From: Ignavibacteria bacterium UBA6906
GTDB taxonomy: Bacteria; Bacteroidota; Ignavibacteria; UBA10030; UBA6906
Reading direction: 5' to 3'
DNA: 64,000 nt
Assembly: GCA_002451155.1 (NCBI GenBank)
Contig: DKBG01000042.1
Coordinates: 12,133-76,132 of the forward strand
Shown: piece by piece, positions 6,626-49,597 of the stretch
Layout of the letters: every line of letters begins with the position of its first letter
Numbering within the stretch: position 1 is the first letter of the stretch
Position numbers and translations under genes: made by a program
The notes under the pieces: generated by a model
Database searches by the model: none
What the model was told of the DNA's origin: nothing
Seen by the model: only the letters and a program-made list of their open reading frames with translations

Positions 6626-6669
6626 GGGAACAATTCACAGAACATGAACAAATCGGTTTCATTACCAGC

Positions 6670-17611: not shown

Positions 17612-17857
17612 TCTGACTGTCCTTCTGAAGTGGTCAATTGTTAGAAATCCTGCAGGGCATTATCTCCGTTCAGGGAGCCCACGCAAGGAACAAGGCTCAC
17701 CCGACCTGGGGAGACATTCATAGAACACACTCCCGCCAAACAGGGTTCCATGTTCTCCCGCGAGGAATGCCCCCCGGCGCAACCGTACCCGGGGGACCCC
17801 CATGCAGGCCGTCCACCCCCCGAATGAGACGGGTACCCACACGCCTATCAGGGAGAG

Positions 17858-18607: not shown

Positions 18608-18781
18608 ACAGAAGTCTCCAGGGTAAACGGTCCCGCTGCGGCACGCTTGATACTAAACATATGCTTTTCGGATCGATTAATCCACAGATGCGGAGGTCAT
18701 CCGGAGCACTCCCACGACCAGAAAGCCCCGATCGCGCAAGAATCGCGGGTCCGGGTACCCGGACAGACCAAAGGCCGTGAA

Positions 18782-23367: not shown

Positions 23368-24336
23368 CTATTTGTGCATCAACAGGCGCTGTTCACCGAT
23401 TTGCAGGATGACAATGCGTTCGGTGTCGAGGCCGCGGCGTGCCGTCTCAGTCCGGAGAACTTCCAACGCTTCTCCGGGATTGTCCAGCGACTCAGTGAAC
23501 GTCTCATAATGCATCGGAACCATCCACCTCGCACCGAGTTCACTCCAGGCGTTGAGAGCGTCGGAAGGGTCGAGATGGCGGATGCGAGTGTACTCGTGAG
23601 GCTTCATCGGAGCGATCGGAAGGAGCGCGAGATCGATACGGGGGAATCTCTTTCGTGTCTCAACGAAAAGTGTTGAATCATACCCCGTATCGCCTCCAAA
23701 GTACACCGTTCTGTCACGGTACTCAATCACATATCCCGTATAGCTCTCCCGCATCCAGGCCCCGTCGATTCCGTACCGCCACCCGTTGTGAAGGACTGGA
23801 ACCGCGGTAATTCGCAGGCCGTCCCGCTCCCAGGATTGCCAGGTAGAGAGCTCGCACATGGGAAAGTCAAAATTCGGCAGATAGACCAATCCCTGCGGAG
23901 GAACGAGCAGCTGACCGACCTTCGGCTCAATCATCTCGAGCGACACGGGTGAGAGGTGGTCGATATGCATATGCGAGATCAGGACCGCATCACAATCCGG
24001 CAACGAGTCAGGGGCCAGTCCGGGCTCGACCAGCCGACGTGAGAAGAAACCGACTGTCCGGGTAAAAACCGGATCGGTGAGGATGAATTTTCCGTCGATC
24101 TGAATCAAGACCGTCGCATGCCCGATCCAGAGGACAGACAGCCCCGCGTCGCCGCGCCGCGGATTGCCAATTCTTCCCGGGATTGAATCCGTGCTCCCGA
24201 AGAATGCAGCGGTGTTCCGACCGATAGCCGAGCCGGTGGACCGAACGGCGGCACAGCCCGCAATCACACCCCCGAGGGATATCAGCAGGGCCACGAGCCC
24301 CCACCAATTTGTACCCCAAAATTTCTCGCCGTTCAT
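23368..24336 (-). CDS. metallo-beta-lactamase-fold hydrolase (Lactamase_B_2 / NAPE-PLD-like) with an N-terminal membrane anchor
   Basis: HxHxDH zinc motif LISHMHIDHL and an N-terminal TM segment WWGLVALLISLGGVIAGCAA. The start is probably an internal Met (MNGEKFW), not the listed 24384. Confidence 0.7.
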   Translation of the reverse strand: MNGEKFWGTNWWGLVALLISLGGVIAGCAAVRSTGSAIGRNTAAFFGSTDSIPGRIGNPRRGDAGLSVLWIGHATVLIQIDGKFILTDPVFTRTVGFFSRRLVEPGLAPDSLPDCDAVLISHMHIDHLSPVSLEMIEPKVGQLLVPPQGLVYLPNFDFPMCELSTWQSWERDGLRITAVPVLHNGWRYGIDGAWMRESYTGYVIEYRDRTVYFGGDTGYDSTLFVETRKRFPRIDLALLPIAPMKPHEYTRIRHLDPSDALNAWSELGARWMVPMHYETFTESLDNPGEALEVLRTETARRGLDTERIVILQIGEQRLLMHK

Positions 24337-24350
24337 TTTCCCCTTCGCAG

Positions 24351-24962
24351 TCAGAAGTATCGAAGAGCCACCGTGACGCTCCATGGTGAACCAGGGAGCC
24401 CGGGGGAATGACCCACCTGAAGGCCCACAATTCCAAAAAACAGGTAGAGCCCCGCCTCATACGCAACGCTCTGCTCTGCTCCCTGCCGGGCATACGAGCA
24501 GCCGACCGACCCGGCCAGGTCCTCGCCGAACCCGCTCAACGGTATGTAGCCTCGCAGTCCAGCACGAACGAGCCAGGGACCACCTGATGTCCCGGAGGGA
24601 AAGAAAATCTCCGGATGAACGAAGAGTTCGATCGATCCATTATACCGGATCATGGGTTCGACAACCAGAACACGCCAGTGACTGAGACGCCGATTTATTC
24701 CCAGCGAATACAGAAGCGGGGTAACCTGCCATCTCAATCCGAACCTGGTCCCTTCCCCGGATCCGAAGTACCACTCAGGGCTCGGGATCAGCTGGGCGGC
24801 CGCCCATGGGAGAGTAACCTGCACGCCCGGTGGCGTAACCCTGGCGAGGGAATCTTCACTCTGTTCCCTGCCTTGCGATCTGGCTTCCGCTACAGGTCCT
24901 CCACTGCAGACAGCGCAGAGAAGAATTGCCAGAAAGACCGGAAACGAATTGCGGGGGAGCAC
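24351..24962 (-). CDS. hypothetical secreted/outer-membrane protein
   Basis: Signal peptide MLPRNSFPVFLAILLCAVCSG, a C-terminal ...VALRYF, and aromatic/Gly-rich composition. Confidence 0.45.
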   Translation of the reverse strand: MLPRNSFPVFLAILLCAVCSGGPVAEARSQGREQSEDSLARVTPPGVQVTLPWAAAQLIPSPEWYFGSGEGTRFGLRWQVTPLLYSLGINRRLSHWRVLVVEPMIRYNGSIELFVHPEIFFPSGTSGGPWLVRAGLRGYIPLSGFGEDLAGSVGCSYARQGAEQSVAYEAGLYLFFGIVGLQVGHSPGLPGSPWSVTVALRYF

Positions 24963-25134
24963 ACACGCCTCACGACGGATTCAAACACGGCCAAAAGAAG
25001 AGTTGCGTTACGATAACTTAGAAATTGAACGATTGAAAGTAAAGACAGATCACAGGCCTCGGCATCCTGATACCGCGCATTGAAACTGATGTACGGAACC
25101 CCTATTATTCATCGATTTCATCCCCTGAATCTGA

Positions 25135-28100
25135 GTGACTCCAGAACACGACAACATCACCCGGCAACCCGCACGAAGACTCCGAACCAACGTCATTCGG
25201 GCTTCAGGCAGGTTCATACGGCGGTTTCTGATAGGGACAGCGCTATTCATCCTCCTTCTTGGGATCCTGTTGCAGATCCCGCCGGTTTCCTTGCTGGTGG
25301 CCCGCTCGGTGTTGAACCTCGTCAACCCCTGGCCCGGGACCGTGGCGTCGATTGGCTCGGCCGGAGGCAGCTGGTTTTCTTCCCTCTCGCTCACGAACAT
25401 CCGAATCGCAAGTGCCTCGGATTCGCTGTTCATCTCGATTGACACCCTGCGGGCCTCGTATGACCTGAGCGCGTTGCTCGGCGGCACGCTCCATTTTCGG
25501 CAGCTCTCCATATCCCGTCCGACCGTCAGAACCCGTCTCCTTCCGGGAGGGAACCTGGTCCTCCTTCAACCGTTTGCCTCATCGGACACAGCCAGCCAGG
25601 ACACATCCGAGGGGCTCAGAGTCCGCGGCGATACTCTTCAACTGACAAACGGCGAGTGCACACTGTTGTTCCCTTCCGACACGACATTCCGACAAATCGA
25701 GGTTCATGATATTCACCTTCGGGGCGATTCCATCCTGATCGGGGGCGGCATTACAGCCTCCATAGATACTCTCCACTGCCGCGCGGCGATTGAGGGCCAG
25801 CGCGCGGGCGAATTTCGGGTCGACGCCGCAGGCACCCTTTCCGGGAGTTCACTTGATGTCCGTTCGCTCTCGATTGCGTCCGCGAGAAGCCGGATCGTCG
25901 GGAGGGGGTACGTTCCTCTGCCTTTTTCGCCGGTCCATTCCCTCCCCGGTACGAACCTCAGGCTCTCAGCCTCGCCCGTCTCGTACGCGGATCTTCACCT
26001 TCTTCTTCCCGGATTCGGACCAGAGGGAGAAGCCCGGGTCGATCTCGGAATCGCTGGAAACGGTGATTCGTCGTTCACCAACCTCACCCTCACGTTCCCC
26101 GGCGGGGGAAACATCGGGCTGACCGGGAAAGCCCGTGCGATGCCAGGCAGAATTCTTGCGCTGGACTTCACGGGTGCGAGCGAGAGGTTCAGTCCGTCAA
26201 GTCTCACCGGACCGCCGGATACCTCTGAATCGCTCCGGAGCAGGTTCAGAGTCATCGGCGCCGGGAGTTCTCCTGCTGATTTTTCCGGTTCAGCCAATGT
26301 TGAGGTGCTCCCCTCTCGTGTCGCGGACATGGGACCGGTCGAGGGGACACTGAACGCAGAGGCCCGTCAGGGCAACATCCGCGCGACAGTTCGAGGGGAC
26401 GTGGGCCCGATTCTGCTCAATGCCGACGTGCGCCTCACAACGTTCGATCCGGTTCCTGAATATGCCGTTAAGGGTACACTCACCATTCTCCATTCAGACA
26501 ATCCTGAGAATCTGCTCGAACGCCTGGGGGGGCTTGTATCAGAGTTCTCCCTTTCCGGCAGGGGATTTGACCCCGATTCAGCCCGGGCACATGCAACCCT
26601 GAAAGGGACGTGGAGTGCAAACCCCTACTGCACTTCCCTTCTGGTCCAGGGAACTTTTGTCTGCGACACCCTGCGTGCGAGCGGAGAACTTGGTACCGGA
26701 ACTGGCTTTGTGCGAACGACTGCCGAGGCAATTGTGAGAGAAGTTCCTCTCTACAGGATCCGTGTCCCCGAGTTCCGGACCATCTCGCTTGCCGTCTTTG
26801 GGAGCACGATCCCTGCTACGAGTCTAACAGGATCACTCCAGGCTGAAGTCTCGGGAGCATCGCTTGCCGAGCTGACCGGAACGGCATCACTCAGACTCGA
26901 TTCTTCACATTTCGCGAGCATTTCAGTGCAGGACCTGCGCACAGATATCACGATCGAACACGGACAGGTCCGGGCCACCGCGTCTGCCGCGAGTGACGCC
27001 GGCGCGATTTCGTTTCAGTGCGTGGCTGATCCCTTTGCAGCCTCCCCGTTTCTGACTCTCGAGGAATCAATGTTCCGGGGCATTGATCTCGGAAAGATTC
27101 TCGGAACGGACGATCTGTCAAGCGATCTGAACGGGAGCGTACAGATCCATGCTGAGGCCAGATCGATGCGTGATCTCTCCCTCGTACTGGATGGTTCGCT
27201 GCAGGACGGAGGAGGGGCAGTACAGGCCGGCGCGCGGGTATCGCTTGACAGCTCGACGGTCAACCGGCAGAAGATACGAGATGCAACGATCGCAATGACG
27301 CTTCTGGACGGAAGCCTTGAAACGTCCGTTGAAATCCGGACCCCAGATGGTGGGTTGACAGGACACGCACACGCGCGGCCTTTTGACCAGACTCCCTCAC
27401 TCTCGGTTCCGGCCTTGCATCTGAACCATCTTGATATCGGGGCCCTGACCGGCCGGAACGGCCTGCGCACCGATCTCACGGGCACACTCGCAGGGGCACT
27501 CCAGGGGGAATTGATTGAGAGCGCGACCGGGAACCTCTCGGTTGACCTCCTGAATTCGACAGTCAATGCTGCCACGCTGCAACGGGGCTCGCTTCAGGCC
27601 ACGATGGAGGGTGGGCCCCTGTCAGTTCACGGCAGAGCGGACTTCACAGAAGGCCGCGTGGCCCTTGAAGCCACCGGCCGCGTGACCCGGGGAGGCATGC
27701 GCGGGAAACTCTCCCTCGATATTTCCTCCAGCAATTTCGCGCCCCTGCTTGACGCCGACAGTCTTTTCCCATCAGCGCTCGTCGTGCGCGGTTTGCTCGA
27801 GGGAACCTGGGGGCCCCCGGCAGAAACGGATTTCAGGGCAACCCTCCTTGGACGTGGTTCATATCACGATTTCAAGGTCGACACGCTCGTCTGCGGGCTT
27901 TCGGTTCACGGGCGCACAATCGTAATCGATACGGCGCAGCTCATCACAAACGTCGGATCTCTTACGGCAGAGGGAACTCTTGTGTCCTTCGATTCGATGT
28001 CCAGTTCGTACTCGGATCTTTCGTTCTCTGCTTCCGCATCATCGTTCCAGCCACTTGAGCATATTTTGGGAATCCCCCCGACACTTTTGCGCAGCGCAAC

Positions 28101-30312
28101 CGTGTCGCTCCACGCTTCCGGGCCACCGGAGATGACGGAGATTCAGTGAGCTGCCGATCTTGACATCGCCGCAGCTGGTGACCTGGCAATAACTTCCTTG
28201 CAGGCGTCAATGGACGGGCGATTCGGGCCCTCTCTGAAACTCGAATCAGTACAAGGGAACGCGGAACTCAGCGGTTTCCAGTACGGTGCGTTCGCCCTGG
28301 AAAATGCGTCAGTCACGCTCCACACGATCGAAGGCAGGCATGAGATCGCAGCGTTGATCCGGTTCGACAGGCATTTCTCCGTAAGCCTGGGCGGGACTGC
28401 TTACACGGACCCCGACAGCGTGACGGTCCGTATCGATTCTCTTGTTGCCCGTAGTCTTGACCAGACATGGGTTCTTGAGCGGCCGGCAACGATTTCGTAT
28501 GGGGCGCGGTTTATTGTCCGGGACTTCGCTCTTCATGCCGGGTCAAGGGACCTCATAATCGATGGCATTCTCGACCCACAGGGCGAGCAGAATTTTACGG
28601 TCGTAGCGGATTCGATGAACCTGGGAAATTTTGCAAAGGTGTTCGGGCGCACGGACCTTGAGGGCTTGCTGTTTGCCAACCTACGAATCGAGGGTCCGGC
28701 TGGCGGAGCCCATGCGTCGGGCCGGATCTCGGCCCGGGTCCGGGAAGCCGGACGGCCTATAGGGGACTTCTTGGCAAACCTGGACTGGCACAGACAGGTG
28801 CTGTCCATCGATGGGAAGATCGACCAACCCGGCGGGGGAATCCTGACCATCTCCGCAATGCTGCCGGTCGAACTTTCTCTCCGTGGCGCTGCGGCGGAAG
28901 GGAACCCGGAGTCGACTCAGACAAAGGGAGACGGATCAGTCGACGTGTTGTTGACTGCGGACAGATTCAATTTCAACTTTCTCAGGCCATTTCTCTCTTC
29001 CCGATCGATCAGCTCGCTCGAGGGAATCCTTACTGCGAACATCCACGCGACGGGATCACTCGGCTCTCTTATGGCGACGGGTGGAGCATCGATTGACAGC
29101 GGCCGCATTGGCATCTCCCCTCTGGGAGTAGTGTATAGTGCCGTCCGGCTGCGATGTACCGCTCAGGGCAGAGAACTCCGTATCGAGAATGCAGAGGCCG
29201 CATCTGGGGAGGGGACTCTCCGTTGGAGCGGAACGCTGGATCTGGATGATCCTATGGACCCCAAAATGAACCTCGAGATTGCCGCGCAGCAATTCCTTGC
29301 CGCCCAGACTCCGGTCACGAAGGCAAACCTCTCGGGGTCATTACAGGTGGAAGGCACGGTGTCGGCGCCGACAATAACGGGCAGTCTGCTGATTAATGAA
29401 TCCTATTTTGTCATTCCCGAAACCATAGGGAGCAGCAGCGTGGAAGCCGTCAACCTGACTGCGGACGATTATGCAATGCTGGCAGAGCATTTCGGGTACA
29501 GACCACGCGTTGTTGCTCCCCGGCATGAGCCGTCCACGGTCGAGCCGACGCTCGACCTCACACTCGAAATTGCGCAGAACACGTGGATACGCAAGCGCAT
29601 CAATCCTACACTCGCAATCGAACTCAATGGGCGCGTCCGGGTCCTGCGAAGTCCGGGGCAGCCCATACGTCTTAGCGGCACACTGAGGCCAGTGACCGGG
29701 CGGAGTTACGTCGGACAATTCGGACGGCAGTTTGAGATTACGGGAGGCGAAATCGTCTTTGGGGGGATACCGCAGGACCTCGAATTGCACATTGATTCCG
29801 AATACAAAGTCCCTTCCAAAGGCGGATCCGGTCTTTCCGAGGTTGTGATCCGGATGAAGGTGCAGAGCAGACTTGGCCGGTTCACCTTCTCGCTGACCTC
29901 CGATCCCGCAATGGACGAGTCAGAGATCCTCTCCTATCTTACAACGGGCCAATCCCGGGCGGGCGCGCTCGCTAACACGGCAGACCAGGGTGGGCTTGCC
30001 GGAGCCATGGCACTGGAGCAGCTGGTGGGCGTTGCAGGAGGTCTCACGGAGGGCTCAGTCCCGATCGATGTGTTCCAGATCCGCCAGGATGGGGCGAGGG
30101 GAATTACAATTGTTGCCGGGAATTATGTAAATCCGAAGACGTACATGGGAATCCGTCAGCCCATTCTCATCAATCAGGGAACGCAGGAAACGTACTACGA
30201 CACGCGGACTCAGTTTGAGCTGGAATATGAAGCGCAGCCCTGGCTGTTTCTGAACTTCCAGGGCGGAAGCAGCCGACTGCTCCTGTTCCTCAAAGCCCGA
30301 CACGCGTACTGA
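25135..30312 (+). CDS. tamB: translocation and assembly module protein TamB (DUF490 C-terminus), interrupted by one in-frame TGA at 28147-28149; a possible pseudogene or recoding site
   Basis: N-terminal TM anchor (FLIGTALFILLLGILLQIP) and a long beta-rich repetitive body. The two listed ORFs, 25135-28149 and 28198-30312, are in the same frame and separated only by TGA. Translation reads straight through as ...PEMTEIQ*AADLDIAAAGDLAITSLQASMDG... The second ORF has no Shine-Dalgarno sequence and a TTG start. Confidence 0.7.
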
Positions 30313-30315
30313 GCC

Positions 30316-32526
30316 ATGCCTCCCACACCGACAGGTCGACGGACGGACAGATGCCCTGGCAGGGCAGCGGCCCGGGAATTTGGCCCGGCATGTCTGCGCA
30401 TCACGGGCTTGCTCATCGCCGCGACCCTGCTCCATGCGAGTCCCGGCCTGGGGCAGGAGACTCCGATACGGACCGATTTGATGACCCAGGTGAGTGAGAT
30501 CCGTTTTCGATTCGTCGAATCACGGAGCTTCACCGATGCCGATCTCCATTCCCGCATCGCGCTGACGGAACGCGGCCGGTTCGTGGGCCTCCGAAACTTC
30601 ATCTCCTTTCTCCCAATGATTGACCCGGTGGGGGACCATCCCTTTGACCCGATTGAGCTCCAGCGGGACGTGGTACGACTCCGTCACTTCTATCGGAACG
30701 CAGGATTTCTCTATCCTCGAATCTCCTATGACCTCCGCCTTGACCCGGAGGATAATCTCATCGACATCACCTTCGTCATTGATGAAGGACCACCGATTCT
30801 TCTCAAGGCGGTTCAGGATTCCGGGATCGGATCAGCGGGACACCCCGACCTTCCCGACGAGGTTGCCGCACAGTGGCGCCGATCGCGTTCGCGCATCGTT
30901 CCGGAGATCGGCAGTCGACTTAATCTGTATGATTTTCCAAGAGTCGAGGCTGCGAGCATCGCCTGGTTCAGAGACAACGGCTACCCGTTCGCGCGTGTCG
31001 AAACTTCACCGGCTATCGATACGGCAGCCCGTTCGTATACCCTCGTCCTGCACGTTGACACCGGTCCCAGATCCAGGATCGGCACAATCAACGTAACCGG
31101 CGAGGAATCTGTGCGGCCGCGTATAATCCTCCGGGAACTTCCGTTTTCCACAGGAGACTACTATTCTTCAGGAAAGATGCTGGAAGGACGGCGGGAAATT
31201 CTCTCGCTCGGTCTCTTTCGCCGGGCAATTGTGACGATTCCCGAGGGGACGCTCCCCGCCGACACCATTCCCCTCTCCGTTGAGGTATCCGAAGGCCCAG
31301 CGCGGGTCATTGGCGGATCGGGAGGGTTCGACTCCCGGGGCGGCCTGACTCTCCAGGCAGAATGGCTGCACCGAAACTTCACGGGAGATGCGCGGACGTT
31401 CTCCGTGTCCGGACTTGCACAGACGGGTGTCTGGGCCACCGAAAGAATCCCGGAGATCCTGTATCGCGGCGCAATAACGCTTACGCAGCCCTACGTATTC
31501 CACCGCAGACTATCCCTTGTATTCGGACCGTATATCGAATTCCGGGACGATTATCGAGACCGATCCAAGGGCCTGGGTTTCACCACGAATCTGATCTACC
31601 AGGTCGATCCCCTTCGATCTGTCGCTCTGCGTTACACAATTAGCGACCGGAAAATCGAAGAAGCGCGGTTTGGCGAATACACGTCGGGTGCGATCGATAT
31701 CCTTACACTCCTGAGCAATCTGGCAAAGGGAACCCGGGTTCTGAAAAACAGTCTGGCGGCACAGGTCTCATACGGATCACTAGACGACATCTCCGTCCCC
31801 CGGGAGGGGTATCTGCTTCGACCCAACGCGGAAGTCACGTTTCTTCCCTCCTTGAACAGCGTGGAGTACTTCCGTTTCGATCTCCCTGTCTATGCATTCT
31901 ACCCTCTGAACGATCAGTTCGGATTCGCCTCACGACTGACCGTCGGTTCCATCCTCCCGTTCGGCAAAGGACTGCCCCAAGGTGACGAAACGACTACGGA
32001 GAAGTTCCTCCAGCTACGAGATGTCGTTTTCACGGCCGGCGGTCCGGAGGACGTACGCGGATGGGGGGCACGCCTCCTTGGTCCGAAATTTCCCGACATC
32101 AGAGTGACAAGCCTGAGCCCCGACACGACGGTTGCGGTCGACGGGTATATTCCTCTTGGAGGGTTGTCGCGGATGACCTTCAGCTGCGAGTTTCGCATGC
32201 CGTTTCCCGGACTCGGCCAGGCGGGAGGGATCGCAGTCTACTTTGACGGCGCACGCGTATGGAACGCGAAACCCGAATTCAAATCGATCGGTGCGTGGGG
32301 GGATGAGGACAAATTCTTCTACGGAACGGGGCTAGGGGTACTGTACCGCCTTCCTTTTGGGACCTTTCGATTAGACCTCGGATACAAGTTGAACCCCTCC
32401 TTCCAGGATTTGAGGGAGGCATCGGATGTTGTGAAGGCCCTGGACGAGGGCACCCCACTTTCAGATATCCCGGTTTACAATTCGAAGCGGTATCATGTAC
32501 ATTTCTCGATCTCCGTAACCTTCTGA
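30316..32526 (+). CDS. Omp85-family outer-membrane protein (BamA/TamA-like, POTRA domains plus a C-terminal beta-barrel)
   Basis: 736 aa, with POTRA-like repeats N-terminally and a C-terminal barrel ending ...HFSISVTF. It starts 4 nt after tamB. Confidence 0.7.
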   Translation: MPPTPTGRRTDRCPGRAAAREFGPACLRITGLLIAATLLHASPGLGQETPIRTDLMTQVSEIRFRFVESRSFTDADLHSRIALTERGRFVGLRNFISFLPMIDPVGDHPFDPIELQRDVVRLRHFYRNAGFLYPRISYDLRLDPEDNLIDITFVIDEGPPILLKAVQDSGIGSAGHPDLPDEVAAQWRRSRSRIVPEIGSRLNLYDFPRVEAASIAWFRDNGYPFARVETSPAIDTAARSYTLVLHVDTGPRSRIGTINVTGEESVRPRIILRELPFSTGDYYSSGKMLEGRREILSLGLFRRAIVTIPEGTLPADTIPLSVEVSEGPARVIGGSGGFDSRGGLTLQAEWLHRNFTGDARTFSVSGLAQTGVWATERIPEILYRGAITLTQPYVFHRRLSLVFGPYIEFRDDYRDRSKGLGFTTNLIYQVDPLRSVALRYTISDRKIEEARFGEYTSGAIDILTLLSNLAKGTRVLKNSLAAQVSYGSLDDISVPREGYLLRPNAEVTFLPSLNSVEYFRFDLPVYAFYPLNDQFGFASRLTVGSILPFGKGLPQGDETTTEKFLQLRDVVFTAGGPEDVRGWGARLLGPKFPDIRVTSLSPDTTVAVDGYIPLGGLSRMTFSCEFRMPFPGLGQAGGIAVYFDGARVWNAKPEFKSIGAWGDEDKFFYGTGLGVLYRLPFGTFRLDLGYKLNPSFQDLREASDVVKALDEGTPLSDIPVYNSKRYHVHFSISVTF

Positions 32527-32593
32527 CACTGCCCGGCCTCCTTCCATCCGGGGGAGAACCTCCCGAATGCATTCTCCTCCCCGCAGAGTGTGC

Positions 32594-33229
32594 TCACTGG
32601 CCTCCAGCCTGCTCCGGATAGATGACCCTGTGGACGATTGCTGCAAGCGCGCCTCCGGCAAAGTTGGCCACGAGGAAGATCCAGATCGTGGACCAGATCG
32701 ATAGGCCCATGACACTCATCCCGGCAGCAACGGCCGGATTGAGAGCGGCCCCGGAGATCCCGGTGATCGCGTAGGCGGAGGCCATCAGCGTGATTCCGAT
32801 TGCCAACCCCCGGATGCAGTGCTCATCCCGTTTCATTGAGGTCACCGTGCTGAGGACGACAAACGCCAGTGCAAACGTGAACAGCAGTTCCGCCAGAAGC
32901 GCTTTTGTCGGCTCCGGGGTCAGGAGCGGCGACGTAGCACCTCCACGCATAAACACAACGAGGAGGCCGGCAAGGCAGGCGGCGACTATCTGAGCGAGAG
33001 CGTATGGAAGCAGCCGCCGGGTTGGAAGTATCCCCCGGATCCACACTGCCAGAGTTACCGCAGGATTGAAGTAGCCTCCGGACATGTCGCCAATGGCACA
33101 AATCATCACCGCATAGACCGCCCCGATCGCCAGTGGTGCAAAGGGACCCACGCTCGGTGGAACAATCGTCAAACCCACCACCAGCGCAAGGAAGAAAGTT
33201 CCGATAAACTCTGCAAGGGCGTTCTTCAT
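32594..33229 (-). CDS. aquaporin / MIP-family channel
   Basis: Two NPA boxes (GGYFNPAVTLAVW and GAALNPAVAAG) in six hydrophobic helices. The start is probably MKNALAEFIGTFF at 33229. Confidence 0.88.
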   Translation of the reverse strand: MKNALAEFIGTFFLALVVGLTIVPPSVGPFAPLAIGAVYAVMICAIGDMSGGYFNPAVTLAVWIRGILPTRRLLPYALAQIVAACLAGLLVVFMRGGATSPLLTPEPTKALLAELLFTFALAFVVLSTVTSMKRDEHCIRGLAIGITLMASAYAITGISGAALNPAVAAGMSVMGLSIWSTIWIFLVANFAGGALAAIVHRVIYPEQAGGQ

Positions 33230-33499
33230 CCAAGCCTCCAGTAGAATGTGATAGTGTCCGACCAACGACGAGAAAAGGAGTGACGCACACATCGCAATTC
33301 AGTCCCGGCCGCGACGGACGCCAGAGCATGAGTTCTTCTTGCTTCGTGAGCGGGAACCAGGGCGTTACGCAGTGACCCCAAGGAAGACCTCTGCTGGAGA
33401 CGGTGCGCATTTGGACGACGCTGACCGGACTTCAGGATCCGGACCAGGGGACTTCTTCCCGGTCTGTGGTTCCGCTTGCTAAAGCGGATGTACGCAGAC

Positions 33500-35749
33500 T
33501 CATCGGGCCCCGGGCGGAAGGTGCTCGTCGAAATACCGGCTGAAGAGTGTATAAAGATGGATGGTTGTATTTTCCCCTTCGGAGATGCCATGGGTACGGT
33601 TGGGATATGACATCATTGAAAACTGCTTCTTCTCCTTCACGAGGGCATTGATCAAACGTTCGGCGCTCTGGTAGTGGACGTTATCGTCTCCTGTGCCATG
33701 GACCAGCAGGAGGTTGCCGCGGAGCCCTCCTGCGTGGGTGATCGGTGAGCCGTCCCGGTACCCCCGTTCATTGTCGGGGAGAAGGCCCATGTATCGTTCC
33801 TGGTAGATCGCATCGTACAGCCGCTGGTCGCTCACGAACGCGACAGCGATGCCGGTCTGATACAGCTCCGGGTACCGGAACAACCCGTTCAGGGTCATTG
33901 ATCCCCCCCCGCTCCATCCCCAGACTCCGATCCTGGTCGAGTCAACGAACGGCCATCGTCGCATTGCCCGCACCGCCGCCGCCTGGTCCTCCGAGGCGAG
34001 GATACCGATCTGGCGATAGATACATTTCCTCCAGGCTCTTCCGCGCGGTGCGGGCGTCCCTCTGTTATCAACGCTAACAACGATGTATCCCCGCTGGGTC
34101 AGTAGAAGGTGCCAGAGATAGGTGTCCCCACCCCACCGATCCAGGACCGTTTGGGCTGCGGGCTCGCCGTAGACATACACGATCAGCGGGTACGTCCGGG
34201 TTGAATCGAAATCCGGGGGGAGCATTTTCCAGCCATCGAGGAGCACTCCCCCGCCAATATCGACACGAAAAAAGGAGGAGGCGCCCCTCTTCAGCCGGTC
34301 CACGGACCGTCGGGCCGCTTTGCCGGAGACCACCGTGCGGACGACCGCATGATCGGGGAGGCGTACAAGTTCCACGCTCGGGGGCGTGCCGAAGGCCGAG
34401 AATGTATGGAAGGCCCACGCGCCGTTCGGGGCGATATCGTATGTGTGCCAACCATTCTGGTCCGGGGGAGTACACCGCTCGACTGCCCCCCCACCTTTCA
34501 GGGAGACTCGATACAGCGAGCGGCGCGTTGGGTTTTCCGGCGAGGCGGACAGGTAGACCCATTGGCCTCGTGCGTCGACACGATCCACGGAGAGGACATC
34601 GAATGGTCCCGGCGTGAGATTCGCGATCATCGCTCCCGAACGGTCATGAAGGAAGAGGTGGTTCCACCCGTCCCGTTCGCTCAACCAGAGAAACGCGCGG
34701 CCGCCGTTCACCCACTTCATCGAATCCACGACTTCCACCCATGCGCTATCCGAGTCGGTCAGGATCGCACGTACCTCGCCCGTCCGTCTGTCTCCGATCA
34801 TGAGGCGGTTCCTGTTCTGCCGTCGATTGAGGTACTGAAAAGCGATCTCATTCGAATTCCCGGCCCAGTCCATCCGGGGGATGTAGTTGTCGCGGGGATC
34901 CCCCGGAACATTCATCCAGAGGGTCTGTCCACCTGCAACGCTGACCACCCCGATCCGGCAGGCGGACAACGTCTCGCCGACTTTGGGATAGGGAATCGGC
35001 GTGATGAACGGGTAGAGCGAATCCGTGTTATTGATCAGATAGAAGTCTCTTACCCCTGTCGCATCGAGATGCCAGTAGGCAATGTGCTGTCCGTCCGGGC
35101 TCCAGCGAAACCCGTCCCGAATCCCGAACTCTTCCTCGTACACCCAGTCAAATGTCCCGTTGATCGATGTCTGCGATCCGTCACCAGTCAGCGCGGTTAT
35201 CTCCCGTGTCTGGATATTCTGAACATACAGATTTCCCCCACACACATACCCAAGCTTATCACCGGCGGGGGAGAACTTTGCGAACATCAGCGTTGAGGGT
35301 TTTGCATCTCCGCCAACTTTCCAGAGTGTCCAGTCCGCCAGCCGGAGTACCCAGTAGTCTCCCCGGCTTCGCACCCGCCAGACACGTTTACTGTTGGTGT
35401 ACAGAAGCAAGAGTTTTCTATCTGGAGACCACTCGTAGTTCTCAGGATTCAATGCCGTTGAATCGCCGGCGGGGCAGAGCCGCTCGGCGGGAACAAGGAG
35501 GCTGCGCGCACCCGTTGCTGTTTCATACCTGACAATATCCCTTCCCCCTTTCACGCTGACCGAACGCTCAACGGTCGTGTAGGAATCTCCGTCGTCCAGC
35601 CACCGAACCTCCCCGACGCGGCCCGGACTGAACTCCCTGGTGCCGAATATTCTCTGAACGGTCAGTGCGGTGGAATCCGCTTCCTGCGCAAATGCGGCAG
35701 TGGGAAGAAGAACGCCAGCCCCGATCAGGAAGAACCACTTTGGATGCAT
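33500..35749 (-). CDS. S9-family serine peptidase, dipeptidyl-peptidase IV-like (N-terminal beta-propeller plus alpha/beta hydrolase)
   Basis: Nucleophile motif GVWGWSGGGSMT (GxSxGG), downstream His (HGTGDDNVH), a DPPIV_N-like propeller region and a signal peptide. Confidence 0.85.
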   Translation of the reverse strand: MHPKWFFLIGAGVLLPTAAFAQEADSTALTVQRIFGTREFSPGRVGEVRWLDDGDSYTTVERSVSVKGGRDIVRYETATGARSLLVPAERLCPAGDSTALNPENYEWSPDRKLLLLYTNSKRVWRVRSRGDYWVLRLADWTLWKVGGDAKPSTLMFAKFSPAGDKLGYVCGGNLYVQNIQTREITALTGDGSQTSINGTFDWVYEEEFGIRDGFRWSPDGQHIAYWHLDATGVRDFYLINNTDSLYPFITPIPYPKVGETLSACRIGVVSVAGGQTLWMNVPGDPRDNYIPRMDWAGNSNEIAFQYLNRRQNRNRLMIGDRRTGEVRAILTDSDSAWVEVVDSMKWVNGGRAFLWLSERDGWNHLFLHDRSGAMIANLTPGPFDVLSVDRVDARGQWVYLSASPENPTRRSLYRVSLKGGGAVERCTPPDQNGWHTYDIAPNGAWAFHTFSAFGTPPSVELVRLPDHAVVRTVVSGKAARRSVDRLKRGASSFFRVDIGGGVLLDGWKMLPPDFDSTRTYPLIVYVYGEPAAQTVLDRWGGDTYLWHLLLTQRGYIVVSVDNRGTPAPRGRAWRKCIYRQIGILASEDQAAAVRAMRRWPFVDSTRIGVWGWSGGGSMTLNGLFRYPELYQTGIAVAFVSDQRLYDAIYQERYMGLLPDNERGYRDGSPITHAGGLRGNLLLVHGTGDDNVHYQSAERLINALVKEKKQFSMMSYPNRTHGISEGENTTIHLYTLFSRYFDEHLPPGAR

Positions 35750-35773
35750 GCAGTACTCCTGTGTGTGTCTCTC

Positions 35774-36877
35774 TCACGAAATCGTAAGGAGCGGTTTCCC
35801 GAGTTGTTGTTCGTCGACACTGATGCCCAGCCCCGGTCCTGCCGGAACGGCCAGGCGTCCCTCAACCCTCCGCGGCGCATCGGGGGCAAGATGGATGTCG
35901 TTGTAGCTGTTGAAGTCCGTTGACGTGAAGAAATATCGTGGCTGCGTGCTGCCAACCAGGTGGGCGATCGTTGCGGTGGTAACATCACCACCCCAGCTAT
36001 CCTCAAGGGTCATGGCGATCCCGAGCGATTCGCAGAGATTTCTGAGCTGAGCCGCCCTGGTTAATCCGCCGACTCTTGAGATTTTGATGTTGACCAGATC
36101 CATTGCACCATCCTGATATGCCCGCACTAACGGCAGCACACCGGTGATCACCTCGTCAAGGACAAACGGCAGGTTCGTGTTCCGCCGAACTCTGAGACAT
36201 TCTTCGTATCCGGCGCACGGCGCCTCGATATAGACATCATCGTCTGCCAGCGCCCTGACAACCCGCAGTGCTTCATGGGAGAGCCAGCCGGTATTGGCAT
36301 CGGCGACAAGGACATCGCCGCTCTGCAAGACGTTTCTCACACGTTTGACCCGTTCAACATCCTGGTCCGGCTCGCCGCCAACTTTCAGCTGGAAGCGGCG
36401 GTAGCCTTCCGCCCTGAAGCGCGAGACATCCGCGGCCATCTCCGCAGGACTTTGCTGGGAGATTGCGCGATAGAGCGGGTAGCTGTCCATTGTTCGTCCC
36501 CCGAGGAGGGTGCTCACCGGGACCCCGGTTGACCGGCCCAGGATGTCCCATGCCGCAATGTCGATGGGAGATTTTGCGTAGTGATGGCCGCCGAGCGTGG
36601 CATCCATGATGCTGTTGAGCTCGCGGATCCGGGACGGATCCCGCCCGAGAATGACTTCGCCCAGTTCCTGGAATCCGGCCGGCACCCCCCGCGCGAACGC
36701 ATCCATGTATGCAGAGCCGAGCGGACAGACTTCTCCGTATCCGGCGATCCCGGTATCGGTCGAGATCTTCACGATGGTGGTAAGAAAGGTGGAGACAGCG
36801 TGCCCGCCGGACCAGGCATAGCGATGATCAAGAAGCCGGTAGGGAATCTGATACAGATCCAGGCGTGTGATTTTCAT
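35774..36877 (-). CDS. enolase-superfamily enzyme (mandelate racemase / muconate lactonizing enzyme family, e.g. a dipeptide epimerase)
   Basis: N-terminal capping domain MKITRLDLYQIPYRL..., a barrel domain with metal-ligand Asp/Glu spacing, and the typical length of 367 aa. Confidence 0.7.
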   Translation of the reverse strand: MKITRLDLYQIPYRLLDHRYAWSGGHAVSTFLTTIVKISTDTGIAGYGEVCPLGSAYMDAFARGVPAGFQELGEVILGRDPSRIRELNSIMDATLGGHHYAKSPIDIAAWDILGRSTGVPVSTLLGGRTMDSYPLYRAISQQSPAEMAADVSRFRAEGYRRFQLKVGGEPDQDVERVKRVRNVLQSGDVLVADANTGWLSHEALRVVRALADDDVYIEAPCAGYEECLRVRRNTNLPFVLDEVITGVLPLVRAYQDGAMDLVNIKISRVGGLTRAAQLRNLCESLGIAMTLEDSWGGDVTTATIAHLVGSTQPRYFFTSTDFNSYNDIHLAPDAPRRVEGRLAVPAGPGLGISVDEQQLGKPLLTIS

Positions 36878-37162
36878 TTCTCGCGGTCCGATAGTATGGG
36901 GGAGGCGCGTGTGTGACAGGGCAAAACCTCAGCGAAAATACTGATCCTTGGTCCTCGAATCAAGCTCCCATCAGACTCTGGACAGATTTCGTCCAACAGC
37001 CCTGACCTTGGATGCAGTCAGCGAAACACCCCGGGGCCGCCCCCTTGGGATTCGCCTGTCAGGTGCCCTGCACTGGGCGAATGGATTATATCCGGTTTTT
37101 TGACCACATTAGACCAGGCCCGTCGAGGCCGAATGACTCGAGACACTTTAGACGGAGGTTCT

Positions 37163-37834
37163 ATGAAACCGCTTTCCGTAAGTGTTGCTCCTGTCGCTCT
37201 CTCCGTTCTGCTGTTTAGCGTTTCGCTCGCCCAAACGACCCTCCCCCGCCAGGAAAAGCTCGTTTTCGAGAACCAGTTCGTCAAGGCGTACGAGGTAACC
37301 ATCAAGCCAGGCGAGTCCCTTCCTCCCCATGAAAGCGGAAACCGGATCATCTATTCGCTCACAAAGTACACCCTCCGGTACAAATGGGACGGCCGCACAT
37401 CAGAAGAGAAGCGGAAGGCAGGCGATGTTCATTTTCATCCTGCAGGAAGACACAACGAGGAGAACGGCGGCACAAATACGGCGAAGTTCATCCTTGTGGA
37501 ACGCCTGGAGACTCCGCTTCCGCCGGCTGAGGGGACCGGGATCGATATGGCCAAGGCAAATCCGCACAACACAACGGTGCTCTTTGACAGAGATATGGCA
37601 AAAGTCTTTGATGTCACCCTCTATCCCAAAGACGCGATCAGCATGCACTTCGGACTCGACCGCCTGATCTACAGTGTCAACGCGGGGACGCTTTCCGTGA
37701 CGAGTCCCGATGGAAAGAAAACCAATATGTCATTCAAGGCAGGCGGCTATCAATGGGAGCCGGCCGGCCTGCACGCGGCTGAAAACGGGGGAAAAAACGC
37801 TGTCAAGCTGGTCGTCTTCAGCTTCAAAAAGTAG
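37163..37834 (+). CDS. secreted protein with two tandem cupin-like repeats, function unknown
   Basis: A GGAGG Shine-Dalgarno sequence lies 4 nt before the ATG at 37163. Signal peptide MKPLSVSVAPVALSVLLFSVSLAQT. Internal duplication: ...VKAYEVTIKPGESLPPHESGNRIIYSL...HFHPAGRHNEENGGTN...LVERLE is repeated as ...AKVFDVTLYPKDAISMHFGLDRLIYSV...WEPAGLHAAENGGKNA...VVFSFKK. Confidence 0.6.
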   Translation: MKPLSVSVAPVALSVLLFSVSLAQTTLPRQEKLVFENQFVKAYEVTIKPGESLPPHESGNRIIYSLTKYTLRYKWDGRTSEEKRKAGDVHFHPAGRHNEENGGTNTAKFILVERLETPLPPAEGTGIDMAKANPHNTTVLFDRDMAKVFDVTLYPKDAISMHFGLDRLIYSVNAGTLSVTSPDGKKTNMSFKAGGYQWEPAGLHAAENGGKNAVKLVVFSFKK

Positions 37835-37897
37835 CTCCGGGGCACCCCGCGGGCGTGGACCGCTCCACGCCCGCCTGGGAACCCCTTCGGGGTGCCC

Positions 37898-40417
37898 TCA
37901 CTCAACACGGTACTCCCCGCGCAGGCGGATATCCCGCGACGAACTTCCAACCAGAATATCAAACTTCCCAGGCTCCACCGTCCAGCGTGTTGTTGTGGGA
38001 TTGAAGAACGAGAGCGCTTCACGCGGAAGGTCGAACGTGAGATCAGTCTTCTGTCCTGGCCGCAGGATGATCTTGCTGAACCCCTTCAGTTCTTTCACGG
38101 GACGGGGAACCGAACATTCCGGATCGCTGACATAGAGCTGGACCACCTCTGCACCCACGCGCCGGGACGTATTCTCAACCTGCAGTGAGACGCGTACAGC
38201 CAGGCCCGAAGCCGTTGACGCAGGAACGATTCGCAGATTGCGATACTCGAACGTCGAATAGGAGAGCCCGAATCCAAACGGAAAAGCCACATCCAGGTTT
38301 TTCGCGTCGAATCCCCTGTACCCCACCATCACTCCCTCTTTATAGTTCACCGTTCCCGCGTTGCCCGGATAATTGCCATGTGCGGGTGACTCCTCCCACC
38401 GTTTCGGAAACGTCACGGGGAGCTTGCCGGAAGGATTTGCCATTCCCGTGAGCAGATCAACCAGGCTTTCCGCCCCTTCCTGGCCGGGATACCAGGCGAG
38501 GAGGAGTGCCGGCACCCGATTTAGCCACCGTGTCATGAGTACCGGCGCTCCGGCATTGAGGATCACTACCGTCCTCTTGTTGACGCGGAGCACGGCTTCG
38601 ATGAGATCGTTCTGGGCTTGCGGAAGCTCAAGGGATTCCCGGTCGAATCCTTCGCATTCCAATTCGTCATTGAGGCCGGCAAAAACAAACGCGATGTCCG
38701 CGTCCCGCGCAGCCTGCACCGCTTCCGCAAGCGGCTTGTCCGCGTCGCTGCGCCAAGCGAGCCGGGCAGTCGCCCTGCCGCCGGCATCAAAGTACTCCAT
38801 TTTCAGCGGGTAGGGACGGCCCCCGCGAAGCGTCAGCGTCACCGACTGAGTTTTCGGTCCACGGCTGTGCCAGTCATCGATGAGCAGCCTGTTTTCAAGC
38901 GCGAGGCGTACACCGTCGTCGGTCCGCACGCTGAGTTCATACCGCCCGTCCGCCGGGGGGACCAGAACGCCAGTCCACCGGACCGAGAACCCATCGTTCG
39001 GGAGCGTGGGTGCCGGCGCGTCCTGATTCCAGGTGAAGTCGATTTTTGGGTCGACACGTACAAGGACGGGGGTTCCTTTGCAGTCCGGGTTTGCGAAATA
39101 TTCTCCGAGTACGCCGATTCCGCTGTTTCCGGGGCGAAGCGACGCAGACTCCACGGTCATAAAATCCTCATCAGAGAAGAGGCCGCGGGCATAGGTCACA
39201 CGAAAGGAACCGCCCGCGCGACGCACAAATACCTCCAGAGGTGAGAGAGCGCCAGTCGGTTCGACCCGGGCGCTCCCGCCTCCTCCGACCACTGCCACAG
39301 ATGCGTTCGGCCCGAGGACTGCGATGGACCGCACCGAGCGAAGGTCAAGCGGGAGCAGGTTCGCATCGTTCTTGAGCAGCACCATTCCTTCGCGGGCAAC
39401 CTCCCGCGCCGCGGTGCGCTGCTGTCCACCCGACACTGCCTCCTCACGGGGCATCACCGGTTCATCACACATGCCGGTCCAGAGCATCGCCTTCAGTATG
39501 CGAGTCACCTTTTCGTTGATCACCGATTCATCCACCTGCCCCTGCCGGACGGCATCAAGCAAGGAGGCGGTGAAGTATTTCCCATCAGGCATTTCCAGAT
39601 CCAGCCCAGCCTGGGCGGCCTGAATGGTCGAATGCGTCGCACCCCAGTCAGAGACGACGAACCCCTGAAACCCCCATTCTTTCTTCAATATCCCATCGAG
39701 CAGCCATGAGTTCTCTGTACAGTAGAGACCATTCAGCTTATTGTAGGCTGCCATCACCGACCATGCTCCCCCATCCTGGATGCCAGCCTTGAAGGCGGGA
39801 AAATAGATCTCACGCAGCGTCCGTTCGTCAACGTTCGCACTGACGGTGAACCTGTCGGTCTCCTGGTTGTTTGCGGCGAAGTGTTTCACGCACGCGATGA
39901 CCTTTTCCGACTGGACCCCGCGCACGAATGCCACAGTCATCACGCTCGCAAGATAGGGATCCTCGCCGAAGCTCTCGAAGCTCCGCCCGCCCATCGGGAC
40001 ACGGACAATATTGACGCAGGGGGCCAGTACCATCTGGCGTCCCTTCGCTTTCGCGTCCAGTGCGATAGCAACAGCCGCCCTCTGAATAAGGTCGGGATTC
40101 CACGTAGCCGCCATACACGCACCTGCCGGGAACGCGGTCGCCTTTCCCCAACGCACCCCCTGAGGTCCGTCAGTCATCCGGAGGGGGGGAATTCCCAGCC
40201 GGGTGACCGGCTTCGTTTCGAACCCGACGCCGGCCAACATGTCAATCTTTTCCTGGAGCGTCATCCGCTCCAGCAGGCCTTTTGCGCGCTGGCTGATGGC
40301 ATCGCGATCGTCGCTCCCCGGCGGTGGTTGCCCGCCCCGGGCTACGCTCCCCACACCGACAATCAGGAGAACTGTCAGGGATACCAATTTGGTGCCCATA
40401 GTTGCTGCTCCTTCCAT
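37898..40417 (-). CDS. glycoside hydrolase family 3 beta-glucosidase with an inserted PA14 domain and a C-terminal Fn3-like domain
   Basis: GH3 nucleophile region GFVVSDWGATHS (SDW), 839 aa, a signal peptide, and a PA14-like insert (...FSVRWTGVLVPPADGRYELSVRTDDGVRL...). Confidence 0.85.
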   Translation of the reverse strand: MEGAATMGTKLVSLTVLLIVGVGSVARGGQPPPGSDDRDAISQRAKGLLERMTLQEKIDMLAGVGFETKPVTRLGIPPLRMTDGPQGVRWGKATAFPAGACMAATWNPDLIQRAAVAIALDAKAKGRQMVLAPCVNIVRVPMGGRSFESFGEDPYLASVMTVAFVRGVQSEKVIACVKHFAANNQETDRFTVSANVDERTLREIYFPAFKAGIQDGGAWSVMAAYNKLNGLYCTENSWLLDGILKKEWGFQGFVVSDWGATHSTIQAAQAGLDLEMPDGKYFTASLLDAVRQGQVDESVINEKVTRILKAMLWTGMCDEPVMPREEAVSGGQQRTAAREVAREGMVLLKNDANLLPLDLRSVRSIAVLGPNASVAVVGGGGSARVEPTGALSPLEVFVRRAGGSFRVTYARGLFSDEDFMTVESASLRPGNSGIGVLGEYFANPDCKGTPVLVRVDPKIDFTWNQDAPAPTLPNDGFSVRWTGVLVPPADGRYELSVRTDDGVRLALENRLLIDDWHSRGPKTQSVTLTLRGGRPYPLKMEYFDAGGRATARLAWRSDADKPLAEAVQAARDADIAFVFAGLNDELECEGFDRESLELPQAQNDLIEAVLRVNKRTVVILNAGAPVLMTRWLNRVPALLLAWYPGQEGAESLVDLLTGMANPSGKLPVTFPKRWEESPAHGNYPGNAGTVNYKEGVMVGYRGFDAKNLDVAFPFGFGLSYSTFEYRNLRIVPASTASGLAVRVSLQVENTSRRVGAEVVQLYVSDPECSVPRPVKELKGFSKIILRPGQKTDLTFDLPREALSFFNPTTTRWTVEPGKFDILVGSSSRDIRLRGEYRVE

Positions 40418-40466
40418 CCGGACAGGATCAGTTCCTCCGCTGTGATTCAGCGGGGGAGCGTCCTCA

Positions 40467-41471
40467 TTACCGCATTCGTTTTTGAAACAGCACCGCAGCG
40501 ATGATGATAATCCCCGTCAGCATCAACCGGCTCTCCTCCCCAACGGCATTGATGCTGAGAACCTTTTCAAGGTACCCAATGGTGAGAATCCCCAGCGCCG
40601 TCATCCAGATACTCCCGCGTCCGCCGCGCAGACTTATTCCCCCGATTACCACAATTGCGATGGCACTCAATTCATACGTGCTTCCCGCTTCCGGATCGCC
40701 CTGAAGCTCCTGCGCCGCCTGACAGATTCCTGCGACGCCGCAAAACAGACCACTCAGCGCGTAGGCCAGCAGTTTGACGGCCGAAACCGGAACTCCTGCC
40801 AGCCAGGACGAATCCTCGTTTCCCCCGACCGCGTACGTGTACCGCCCCCAGCGAAGTCGATCCAGAAAGATCCAGGAGAGCAGGACGCAGAACATCAGCA
40901 CCAGCGTCACGACAGCAATATTGTCGTCAAGAAGCCTGGAGCCGATGGTGTTGAAGATCTGCGGGACATCCACGTATTGGTAGGATCCATCGGGTAGCTG
41001 GACAGCAGTCGAGATCTTCTGCCCGCCAGAGACGAGTTTCGCAAGTCCCCGGGCGAACACCATCATTGCCAGCGTCGCGATAAACGGCTGGATCCGGAAT
41101 CGCGCGATGAGCCCCCCGGAGATGGCACCACAAAATGCGGCAGCAGCGATCGTCACCGCGATGGCGGGTATGACCGACCAGCCCCAGTGTATCGAAAAGA
41201 GCGAGAACAGGACCGCGGCGAGGCCCAGGATGCTCCCCACCGCAAGATCGATCCCTCCGGAAATAATAACGACCGTCATCCCGCACGCCAGGATACCATA
41301 GACAGACACCTGCCGGAGCATATCACGGTGAGTATCCCAGCTGAAAAACGCTCCGTCCGCGTTAAAGAGGAGTCCAAGCAAGAACACCAGCAACAGCGAC
41401 ACGATCCCTCTGGCTGTCGGGGAGAGAATCATCGTCCGGAGTCGGGGTATCAGCGAAGTCCTGTCAGGCAT
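40467..41471 (-). CDS. ABC transporter permease (monosaccharide RbsC/XylH/branched-type family)
   Basis: Multiple TM helices, and the motif pattern of binding-protein-dependent sugar permease family 2. The probable start MPDRTSLIP at 41471 lies 2 nt after the ATPase stop. Confidence 0.75.
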   Translation of the reverse strand: MPDRTSLIPRLRTMILSPTARGIVSLLLVFLLGLLFNADGAFFSWDTHRDMLRQVSVYGILACGMTVVIISGGIDLAVGSILGLAAVLFSLFSIHWGWSVIPAIAVTIAAAAFCGAISGGLIARFRIQPFIATLAMMVFARGLAKLVSGGQKISTAVQLPDGSYQYVDVPQIFNTIGSRLLDDNIAVVTLVLMFCVLLSWIFLDRLRWGRYTYAVGGNEDSSWLAGVPVSAVKLLAYALSGLFCGVAGICQAAQELQGDPEAGSTYELSAIAIVVIGGISLRGGRGSIWMTALGILTIGYLEKVLSINAVGEESRLMLTGIIIIAAVLFQKRMR

Positions 41472-43017: not shown

Positions 43018-43029
43018 TGCGCCCTCGTC

Positions 43030-45318: not shown

Positions 45319-45357
45319 GATCCCACGGTCTCGGCCGGGCCGATCGCGGGCACGCTG

Positions 45358-46332: not shown

Positions 46333-46988
46333 GGCATCCTTTGGTACGCAGTGATCAGAGAACACGGGAGCAGAAGATCCCACCGGGACGCGTCTGCTGC
46401 ACCTTTCGGGAATTTGCAGAAAAGAAGAAAACCTCTGCGGCGTAGTGCTCTAAAATAGGGGGAACTTGCATCTTTCGCAATCCATCGACCGCTGAGAATG
46501 CACTTCGGGGCCGGACCATTCCATACCCTCGGCCTGCGTGTTCGAGTCCGGCCGAACGCCCCCCTCAACAGGCTGCGGACACACCTGCCACCCTCGGAGC
46601 GGTGCTGATCCCGGCTTACGTCGACATCGAAGGCCAGGCCTATCAGCCGCGTATCGCAGGACGCTTTCCTGCGAACCGGTCGGGCACGGAGTGTCACGGA
46701 TGAATCGTTCCTTATCCGCTACACGGCGACCACAGAGCACCTCCTGTGCGTGACAGGCTCGTTCGGCGGAAGATCCCGGCAACGGGTACGGTTTCCGGAG
46801 AGGAAAGCCCGGAGAGATCAGGCAGTTCAAGGTCAGCGTCTCGCTCCTCGACTTTTGCTGACACATCTCCGGCAGGGGCCGGAGCACCCATCACGGCAAC
46901 ATGATGAGAATCCCCGTTTGCGAACCTGCCGCACCGCCACCGCCCTCCTCGGCGCTTCCGCGGCAACGGTATCGGCCAGGCGGCCGCG

Positions 46989-48557: not shown

Positions 48558-48560
48558 GCG

Positions 48561-49487: not shown

Positions 49488-49597
49488 GATATCCTCCCTC
49501 ATTGTCTCCCCCTCAGGGGGCGTGATATCCGGGGTATACGTGTGTCCGTCTGGGAGTCCGGCGAAATCCTGCAGGACTGTTCACACCAATCACCGTG

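Follow-up and report, generated by a model that had tools for sequence, protein, structure and literature searches.

The forward strand of a 64,000-nucleotide stretch of Ignavibacteria bacterium UBA6906 (contig DKBG01000042.1, positions 12,133 to 76,132; hereafter the window) carries a tamB gene of 1725 codons that is interrupted at codon 1005 by one in-frame TGA. The stop is either an erroneous base or a knockout mutation of recent origin; it does not signal programmed recoding. The substitution itself, a C>A change at position 28149 by which a cysteine codon (TGC) becomes TGA, is read directly from comparison with near-identical assemblies, and from its context we infer that it is probably a real, very recent and non-programmed nonsense allele (Cys1005 to stop) of the strain or sub-population behind this assembly. 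As an event it belongs to the most ordinary class, a one-base nonsense change in a metagenome-assembled contig. The parts of the gene on which the argument turns are as follows.

25135–28149, forward strand: 5′ part of tamB, 1004 sense codons with a GTG start, ending at the premature TGA (from the list of open reading frames and the translation).
28147–28149, forward strand: the premature TGA at codon 1005, where conspecific strains have TGC (Cys) and orthologues have either TGC or TGT.
28149, forward strand: the causal single-nucleotide difference, A in the window and C in the conspecific contigs L001, L002, L003, L004 and L011.
28150–30312, forward strand: rest of tamB on the 3′ side, a fully open frame of 720 codons that ends in the natural TGA stop.

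The open reading frame (ORF) at 25135–28149 shares its frame with a second one at 28198–30312 (704 amino acids, TTG start), and sequence, ORF list and translation all bear out the description given in a first-pass annotation of this DNA, namely one in-frame UGA between same-frame tamB ORFs of 1004 and 704 codons. Its statement that the TamB sequence is readable across the stop also holds, since the joined translation of 25135–30312 comprises 1725 codons with only that one internal stop and reads ...GPPEMTEIQ-stop-AADLDIAAAGDL.... The 5′ piece, whose start at 25135 is also used in gene calls on L001 and L003, covers the N-terminal membrane anchor and the initial ~58% of the β-sheet body, and is identical to a 1004-residue NCBI protein (P0048). 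Three readings of the stop had been offered, a nonsense mutation or sequencing error, a programmed readthrough or recoding event aided by a local hairpin, and a genuinely split TamB; the first of these is supported by the TGC found at this position in near-identical assemblies.

A protein search with the joined tamB product as query, the stop being bridged, returned a 1725-residue homolog (P0001) at 100% coverage that reads ...EIQCAADLD... through the site. The 90% cluster to which P0001 belongs has five members: two full-length sequences (ENA/Logan), a 726-residue contig-end fragment that has the cysteine, P0048, and the 700-residue P0050, the last two being the window's own two pieces, both from one 127,641-nucleotide NCBI contig. 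At the DNA level the locus was compared with conspecific contigs from ERR688350 (L001 and L002, two assemblers), ERR688355 (L003), ERR688351 (L004) and SRR5324705 (L011), that is, five assemblies from four other runs with 99.77–99.94% identity to the window across 10–25 kb (99.77–99.90% across 20–25 kb for L001–L004). Codon 1005 is TGC in all five, as established by codon comparison, by the L004 sequence, and by the first base of L011, and an intact 1725-residue TamB is encoded in all three assemblies that span the whole gene (the two from ERR688350 and that from ERR688355). Within tamB the window differs from L001/L002 at six positions and from L003 at 12.

The same residue is found further afield. 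At 50–55% identity, all eight orthologues, each a single ORF of 1704–1725 residues, have an invariant Cys at column 1005, and the four orthologue loci read as DNA have TGC or TGT at the codon; overall, the TGA is aligned with TGC or TGT in L001–L008 and L011 and with Cys in P0001–P0008. In more distant TamB homologs the column is occupied by G, F, L, T, A or V. Comparison with related tamB genes, which the first-pass annotation had called for, thus gives a cysteine codon or residue, and never a stop, in five near-identical assemblies and eight orthologues; the sense codon that it had named as a refutation, one that bears on the recoding and split-gene readings, is in effect supplied by the TGC of assemblies from four other runs. 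Cys1005 is also the sole cysteine invariant across the eight orthologues, without a partner cysteine or CxxC motif, and its role is probably structural.

Other searches for relatives added little. A single-protein search of public genome contigs gave no match, and one using an alignment of eight sequences found only L005 (‘uncultured Bacteroidetes bacterium’). An exact-pattern scan of JGI (Joint Genome Institute) metagenomes around codon 1005, with N at the variable base, had no match, and a literature search for PRJEB7840, SRR5324705 and ERR688350 returned nothing. A more distant locus with 44% identity (L018, contig_65577 of ERZ25039503) has a fragmented tamB, with frameshifts at other positions and Cys kept at codon 1005. 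In L018 (6001–13152) tamB lies in at least two pieces in different frames, the first of which is without the N-terminal ~80 residues, and the Omp85 gene is in two pieces, so that the locus looks like the product of indel-type assembly errors or decay. A 983-residue, N-terminal-only protein (P0013) was considered as a second split TamB and rejected, as it derives from a frameshift-broken locus in which the Omp85 neighbor is also broken and the codon encodes Cys.

Apart from its interruption the gene is a bona fide member of the TamB family. The distal part matches the Pfam TamB domain (PF04357, E = 4.2e-40) over residues 349–697 of its 720, covering profile positions 4–357 of 381; the N-terminus gives weak Pfam matches to YhdP/DUF748, and contains a signal-anchor helix with a Kyte–Doolittle 19-residue maximum of 2.48 in the segment starting at residue 37 (FILLLGILLQIPPVSLLVA). 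The gene resembles other TamB (PF04357/DUF490) genes in its N-terminal anchor, β-rich body of ~1700 residues, C-terminal TamB domain and adjoining Omp85/POTRA partner, and differs from them in being cut at codon 1005, in being longer than E. coli TamB (~1260 residues) and in belonging to an uncultured Bacteroidota-like lineage. A single uninterrupted polypeptide running from anchor to C-terminal domain is absent from the window and present in the conspecific strains and the eight orthologues. The partner gene follows directly.

30316–32526, forward strand: Omp85/POTRA gene, a TamA-like partner (PF01103 and PF07244).

The order of tamB followed by Omp85 recurs in L001, L003 and L006–L008. Only three nucleotides separate the tamB stop TGA from the Omp85 ATG (window 30310–30318), in the same frame, and this spacing is kept in orthologues of 50–55% identity (8169/8173 in L006, 5336/5340 in L007, 8166/8170 in L008), an arrangement that suggests tight translational coupling of the pair.

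How the change arose can be approached through the variation that surrounds it. Relative to L001–L003 the window has eight private single-nucleotide polymorphisms (SNPs) in ~22 kb, three synonymous and five non-synonymous including 28149, and no common sequence motif was found around these eight. Measured against L001 and L003 alone, private changes of the window comprise seven transitions and five transversions, as compared with 14:8 and 21:16 for the other strains, and none of the 17 other genes in the compared 25 kb has a frameshift or is broken in any other way. The differences therefore resemble natural strain variation, and the assembly does not appear generally error-ridden, both of which favor a real allele. 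Within tamB itself the strains differ by five non-synonymous and 10 synonymous changes, and no window-private substitution occurs in the 2163 nucleotides 3′ of the stop; these counts indicate that the gene is constrained in the population and that the lesion is young. Judged from them, tamB is an otherwise normal single ORF of 1725 codons under purifying selection, and the lesion is very young or artefactual. It has the marks of an ordinary nonsense pseudogene, or an unfixed loss-of-function allele in a metagenome-assembled genome, being a single-base stop private to one assembly, with the wild-type codon in co-occurring strains and no decay 3′ of the stop, and it differs from that class in nothing beyond the question of allele versus error. 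Strain differences at large cluster in short, mostly intergenic stretches (17791–17829, 18689–18698, 33431–33447, 37025–37071 and 37860–37892), with several SNPs and one- or two-nucleotide indels per 10–50 nucleotides, and are elsewhere scattered single SNPs. Other candidate broken genes in the window were dismissed, same-frame ORF pairs proving to be separate genes with different domains, and apparent small ORFs near 54–58 kb resolving into intact genes.

It is also possible, if less probable, that position 28149 owes its A to an error of base calling, consensus or assembly, and that the organism truly has TGC and an intact tamB. Several points weigh against a real allele. The TGA is confined to a single record and shared by no further assembly represented in the protein collection, with C found in the five other assemblies of the same species-level population, and from the assembly alone an A at 28149 is indistinguishable from a consensus or assembly error. 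The absence of private change from the distal 720 codons is as expected of an artefact. The SRR5324705 Logan contig L011 (window 28149–37859) begins at exactly 28149, so that at least one data set has a break in its assembly graph there, a break that may just as well reflect a problem of assembly. Lastly, tolerance of tamB loss may depend on other AsmA-like paralogues in this organism, by analogy with E. coli. A study of E. coli (PMC8593681) describes TamB, YhdP and YdbH as redundant and loss of TamB alone as tolerated.

The contig ends in SRR5324705 offer some insight into the discontinuity. Of the four ends of L011 and L017 (window 24334–26910), three lie one base from known strain SNPs (24333, 26911 and 37860), whereas the fourth, the start of L011, coincides with the variable base 28149, which is C in this contig, and not with 28150. 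Since these ends fall at strain-variable sites, SRR5324705 holds a strain mixture in which codon 1005 or a neighbor is a branch point; in a locus assembled from such a mixture both path choice and consensus are error-prone, a further point in favor of an artefact. The contig of this run expected to reach the SNP from the left was not recovered, only L017, ending at 26910, being found on that side. C>A is, in addition, the change that oxidative damage typically leaves in short-read libraries. Contrary to an artefactual origin, the rest of the compared 25 kb has no frameshift or other broken gene, and the private differences are natural-looking in their transition/transversion ratio and synonymous share. 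Nor is there a motif-linked systematic error: a methylation-linked miscall, conceivable as the C lies in GCGC, was rejected because all 107 GCGC sites present in 15135–37013 are intact and the private SNPs share no motif. Real SNPs here are expected to outnumber plausible consensus errors more than tenfold, a ratio that is inferred and not measured. Between a real strain allele and an assembly error, the former is somewhat more likely.

Neither origin involves recoding, the possibility of which was raised by a hairpin that begins at the stop.

28149–28176, forward strand: local hairpin with stems of 6 and 4 base pairs, a CC bulge and a six-nucleotide loop (CTTGAC).

In this structure AGCTGC (28149–28154) pairs with GCAGCT (28171–28176) and encloses a CGAT/ATCG stem (28155–28158 and 28165–28168), and the RNAfold minimum-free-energy fold of 28141–28200 is exactly the stem-loop that the first-pass annotation had drawn. 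Its stability is unexceptional at this length: the 60 nucleotides fold with -13.9 kcal/mol as against -12.9 +/- 2.8 for dinucleotide shuffles (z = -0.36, with 68 of 200 shuffles as stable), and 63% of 60-nucleotide segments in tamB and the Omp85 gene are at least as stable. The compact 32-nucleotide hairpin, at -11.6 kcal/mol, is matched or beaten by ~5% of 32-nucleotide segments (~40 of ~815 sampled in the same two genes). The TGC-bearing conspecific strains already form the hairpin with one pair fewer (-12.2 versus -13.9 kcal/mol over 60 nucleotides), so that it did not arise together with the stop, and it is not conserved in orthologues L006–L008, three of the four loci read as DNA, which fold differently. 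The hairpin is an incidental mRNA structure, not a recoding signal.

These results bear on a programmed UGA readthrough, in which the hairpin would stimulate decoding by a near-cognate tRNA and yield full-length TamB as a regulated fraction. Of the stop codons UGA is the leakiest, the frame stays open beyond it, and a hairpin with which few sampled 32-nucleotide segments compare starts at the stop, all features shared with programmed readthrough sites, in which a UGA is followed by secondary structure and an open frame. Here, however, neither stop nor structure is conserved: no conspecific strain and no orthologue has the stop, the hairpin predates it and is missing from L006–L008, its 60-nucleotide stability is no better than chance, and no Rfam family is matched anywhere in the 64-kb window. 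Hairpin-aided recoding, as earlier proposed, is on this evidence very unlikely. Equally doubtful is a functional rescue of a real TGA allele, in which readthrough by near-cognate tRNA-Cys or tRNA-Trp with the pre-existing hairpin, or insertion of selenocysteine (Sec), would give useful full-length TamB; if this were true, a conserved Cys codon would be seen here in the act of becoming a recoding site in this population.

A yet more improbable proposal is that the UGA encodes Sec, forming a Sec/Cys pair with the Cys-containing homologs. An in-frame TGA aligned with a Cys found in all eight closest orthologues, followed by a stem-loop, has the general appearance of a bacterial selenoprotein gene such as fdhF, and TGA opposite Cys is the classic first screen for selenoproteins, although the Sargasso Sea selenoproteome screen treated singletons as mere candidates, open to sequencing error (PMC1088965). 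The model of the bacterial selenocysteine insertion sequence (bSECIS) calls for a loop of 3–9 nucleotides, a stem of at least 4 base pairs, a G in the first two loop positions, 16–37 nucleotides from UGA to loop, and a minimum free energy of -7.5 kcal/mol or lower (PMC13188914). The loop at the tamB stop (CUUGAC) begins 9 nucleotides past the UGA, its first two positions being C and U without a G, and no alternative downstream hairpin passes the model, the best reaching -5.2 kcal/mol in a scan of contiguous stems only; by chance ~7% of codons in tamB and the Omp85 gene pass it, and the TGA site does not. Whereas the UGA of a selenoprotein gene would be expected in at least two different sequences, the TGA is found in one only, strains 99.8% identical use Cys, and the column varies among distant TamB homologs and lacks a CxxC-type motif. 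TamB is, moreover, a structural lipid/protein conduit and not a redox enzyme. No tRNA-Sec, selA, selB or selD was found within the 64-kb window (no tRNAs by ARAGORN, no Rfam matches, and Pfam on ~45 ORFs).

Reassignment of UGA to a sense codon (genetic code 4 or 25) has nothing in its favor beyond the in-frame TGA itself, is the least probable of the explanations considered, and is refuted by how stop codons are used across the window. No terminator is commoner there than TGA, which ends 30 of 53 long ORFs, among them tamB itself (30310–30312), the Omp85 gene and the ORF at 150–4244, in line with the first-pass argument that UGA acts as a normal terminator and that genome-wide reassignment is unlikely. 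The 18 genes checked contain a single internal TGA, and homologous gene calls in other assemblies end at the same TGA codons.

The remaining alternative is that two pieces are made and work together as a split TamB, the distal one starting at either of two codons.

28198–28200, forward strand: TTG, candidate re-start codon.
28210–28212, forward strand: ATG, candidate re-start codon and start of the 700-residue P0050.

Both halves remain open reading frames, and the source annotation lists two proteins, P0048 (1004 residues) and P0050 (700 residues). No relative is split here, however, the eight orthologues and the gene-spanning conspecific strains being single ORFs, and the sole fragmented relative, L018, is broken by frameshifts elsewhere, along with its Omp85 gene, and retains Cys at the codon. 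The distal piece has neither signal peptide nor membrane anchor: the first 100 residues after the stop contain no hydrophobic signal (maximum hydropathy 0.9, versus 2.48 at the N-terminus of TamB), and without such an export signal it could not reach the periplasm. No Shine–Dalgarno-like motif precedes TTG 28198 or ATG 28210; the first-pass annotation was correct on this point for the downstream piece, but the lack is uninformative, since only 12 of 28 well-supported genes in the window have such a motif and tamB's own start is without one.

Structural modeling places the break within a β-strand and not between domains. An AlphaFold2 model of residues 820–1220 (mean predicted local distance difference test score, pLDDT, 81.9) has 26 consecutive β-strands, with residue 1005 inside strand 182–192 of the fragment model, in a block with pLDDT of ~90. 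This unbroken array agrees with published work (PMC11014939) in which TamB forms a continuous groove, anchored in the inner membrane at one end and engaging TamA POTRA through a C-terminal domain at the other. A PDB fold search with the fragment model had no significant match, the best being the ApoB100 β-belt (E = 9e-3). The model thus predicts the long continuous β-sheet body expected of the family, while the ‘taco’ shape was unmatched to a solved TamB fragment in that search. With relatives that are single ORFs, a distal piece devoid of an export signal and a break inside a β-strand, a functional split TamB is highly improbable.

Farther from tamB, the window has some features of its own. 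An ORF of more than 1414 codons (3–4244, forward strand) runs off the window start, with a family match (aminotransferase class I/II, PF00155, profile positions 132–351) confined to the initial ~250 residues and none in Pfam for the ~1100 that follow. The protein could be a fusion of an unusual kind or include a large uncharacterised domain. Regions 4295–9329 and 33500–51832 are rich in glycan- and peptide-degrading enzymes, including a GH20 hexosaminidase, an alpha-L-fucosidase, two GH3 enzymes (one with a PA14 insert) and two DPP-IV/S9 peptidases, together with a ROK kinase and an ABC sugar transporter, a neighborhood that suggests a polymer-degrading lifestyle.

If the nonsense allele is real, translation would end at codon 1004 and leave an inner-membrane-anchored N-terminal fragment lacking the last 720 residues. 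Among the lost residues would be the C-terminal TamB/DUF490 domain, through which characterised TamB binds the POTRA domain of TamA, and with the periplasm-spanning groove interrupted, this TamB copy would be null or severely hypomorphic. A distal fragment re-initiated at TTG 28198 or ATG 28210, being without an export signal, would stay in the cytoplasm, and background near-cognate readthrough of the UGA would be the only route to traces of full-length protein.

The main value of the finding is as a quality flag: the 1004- and 700-residue ‘genes’ are one tamB with an internal stop, to be treated as a pseudogene or probable error, and the annotated pair does not speak for recoding, a selenoprotein or a split TamB. 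Should the allele be real, an uncultured Bacteroidota-like population would be segregating a loss-of-function variant in a gene of envelope biogenesis, a small example that would fit the AsmA-like redundancy described in E. coli.

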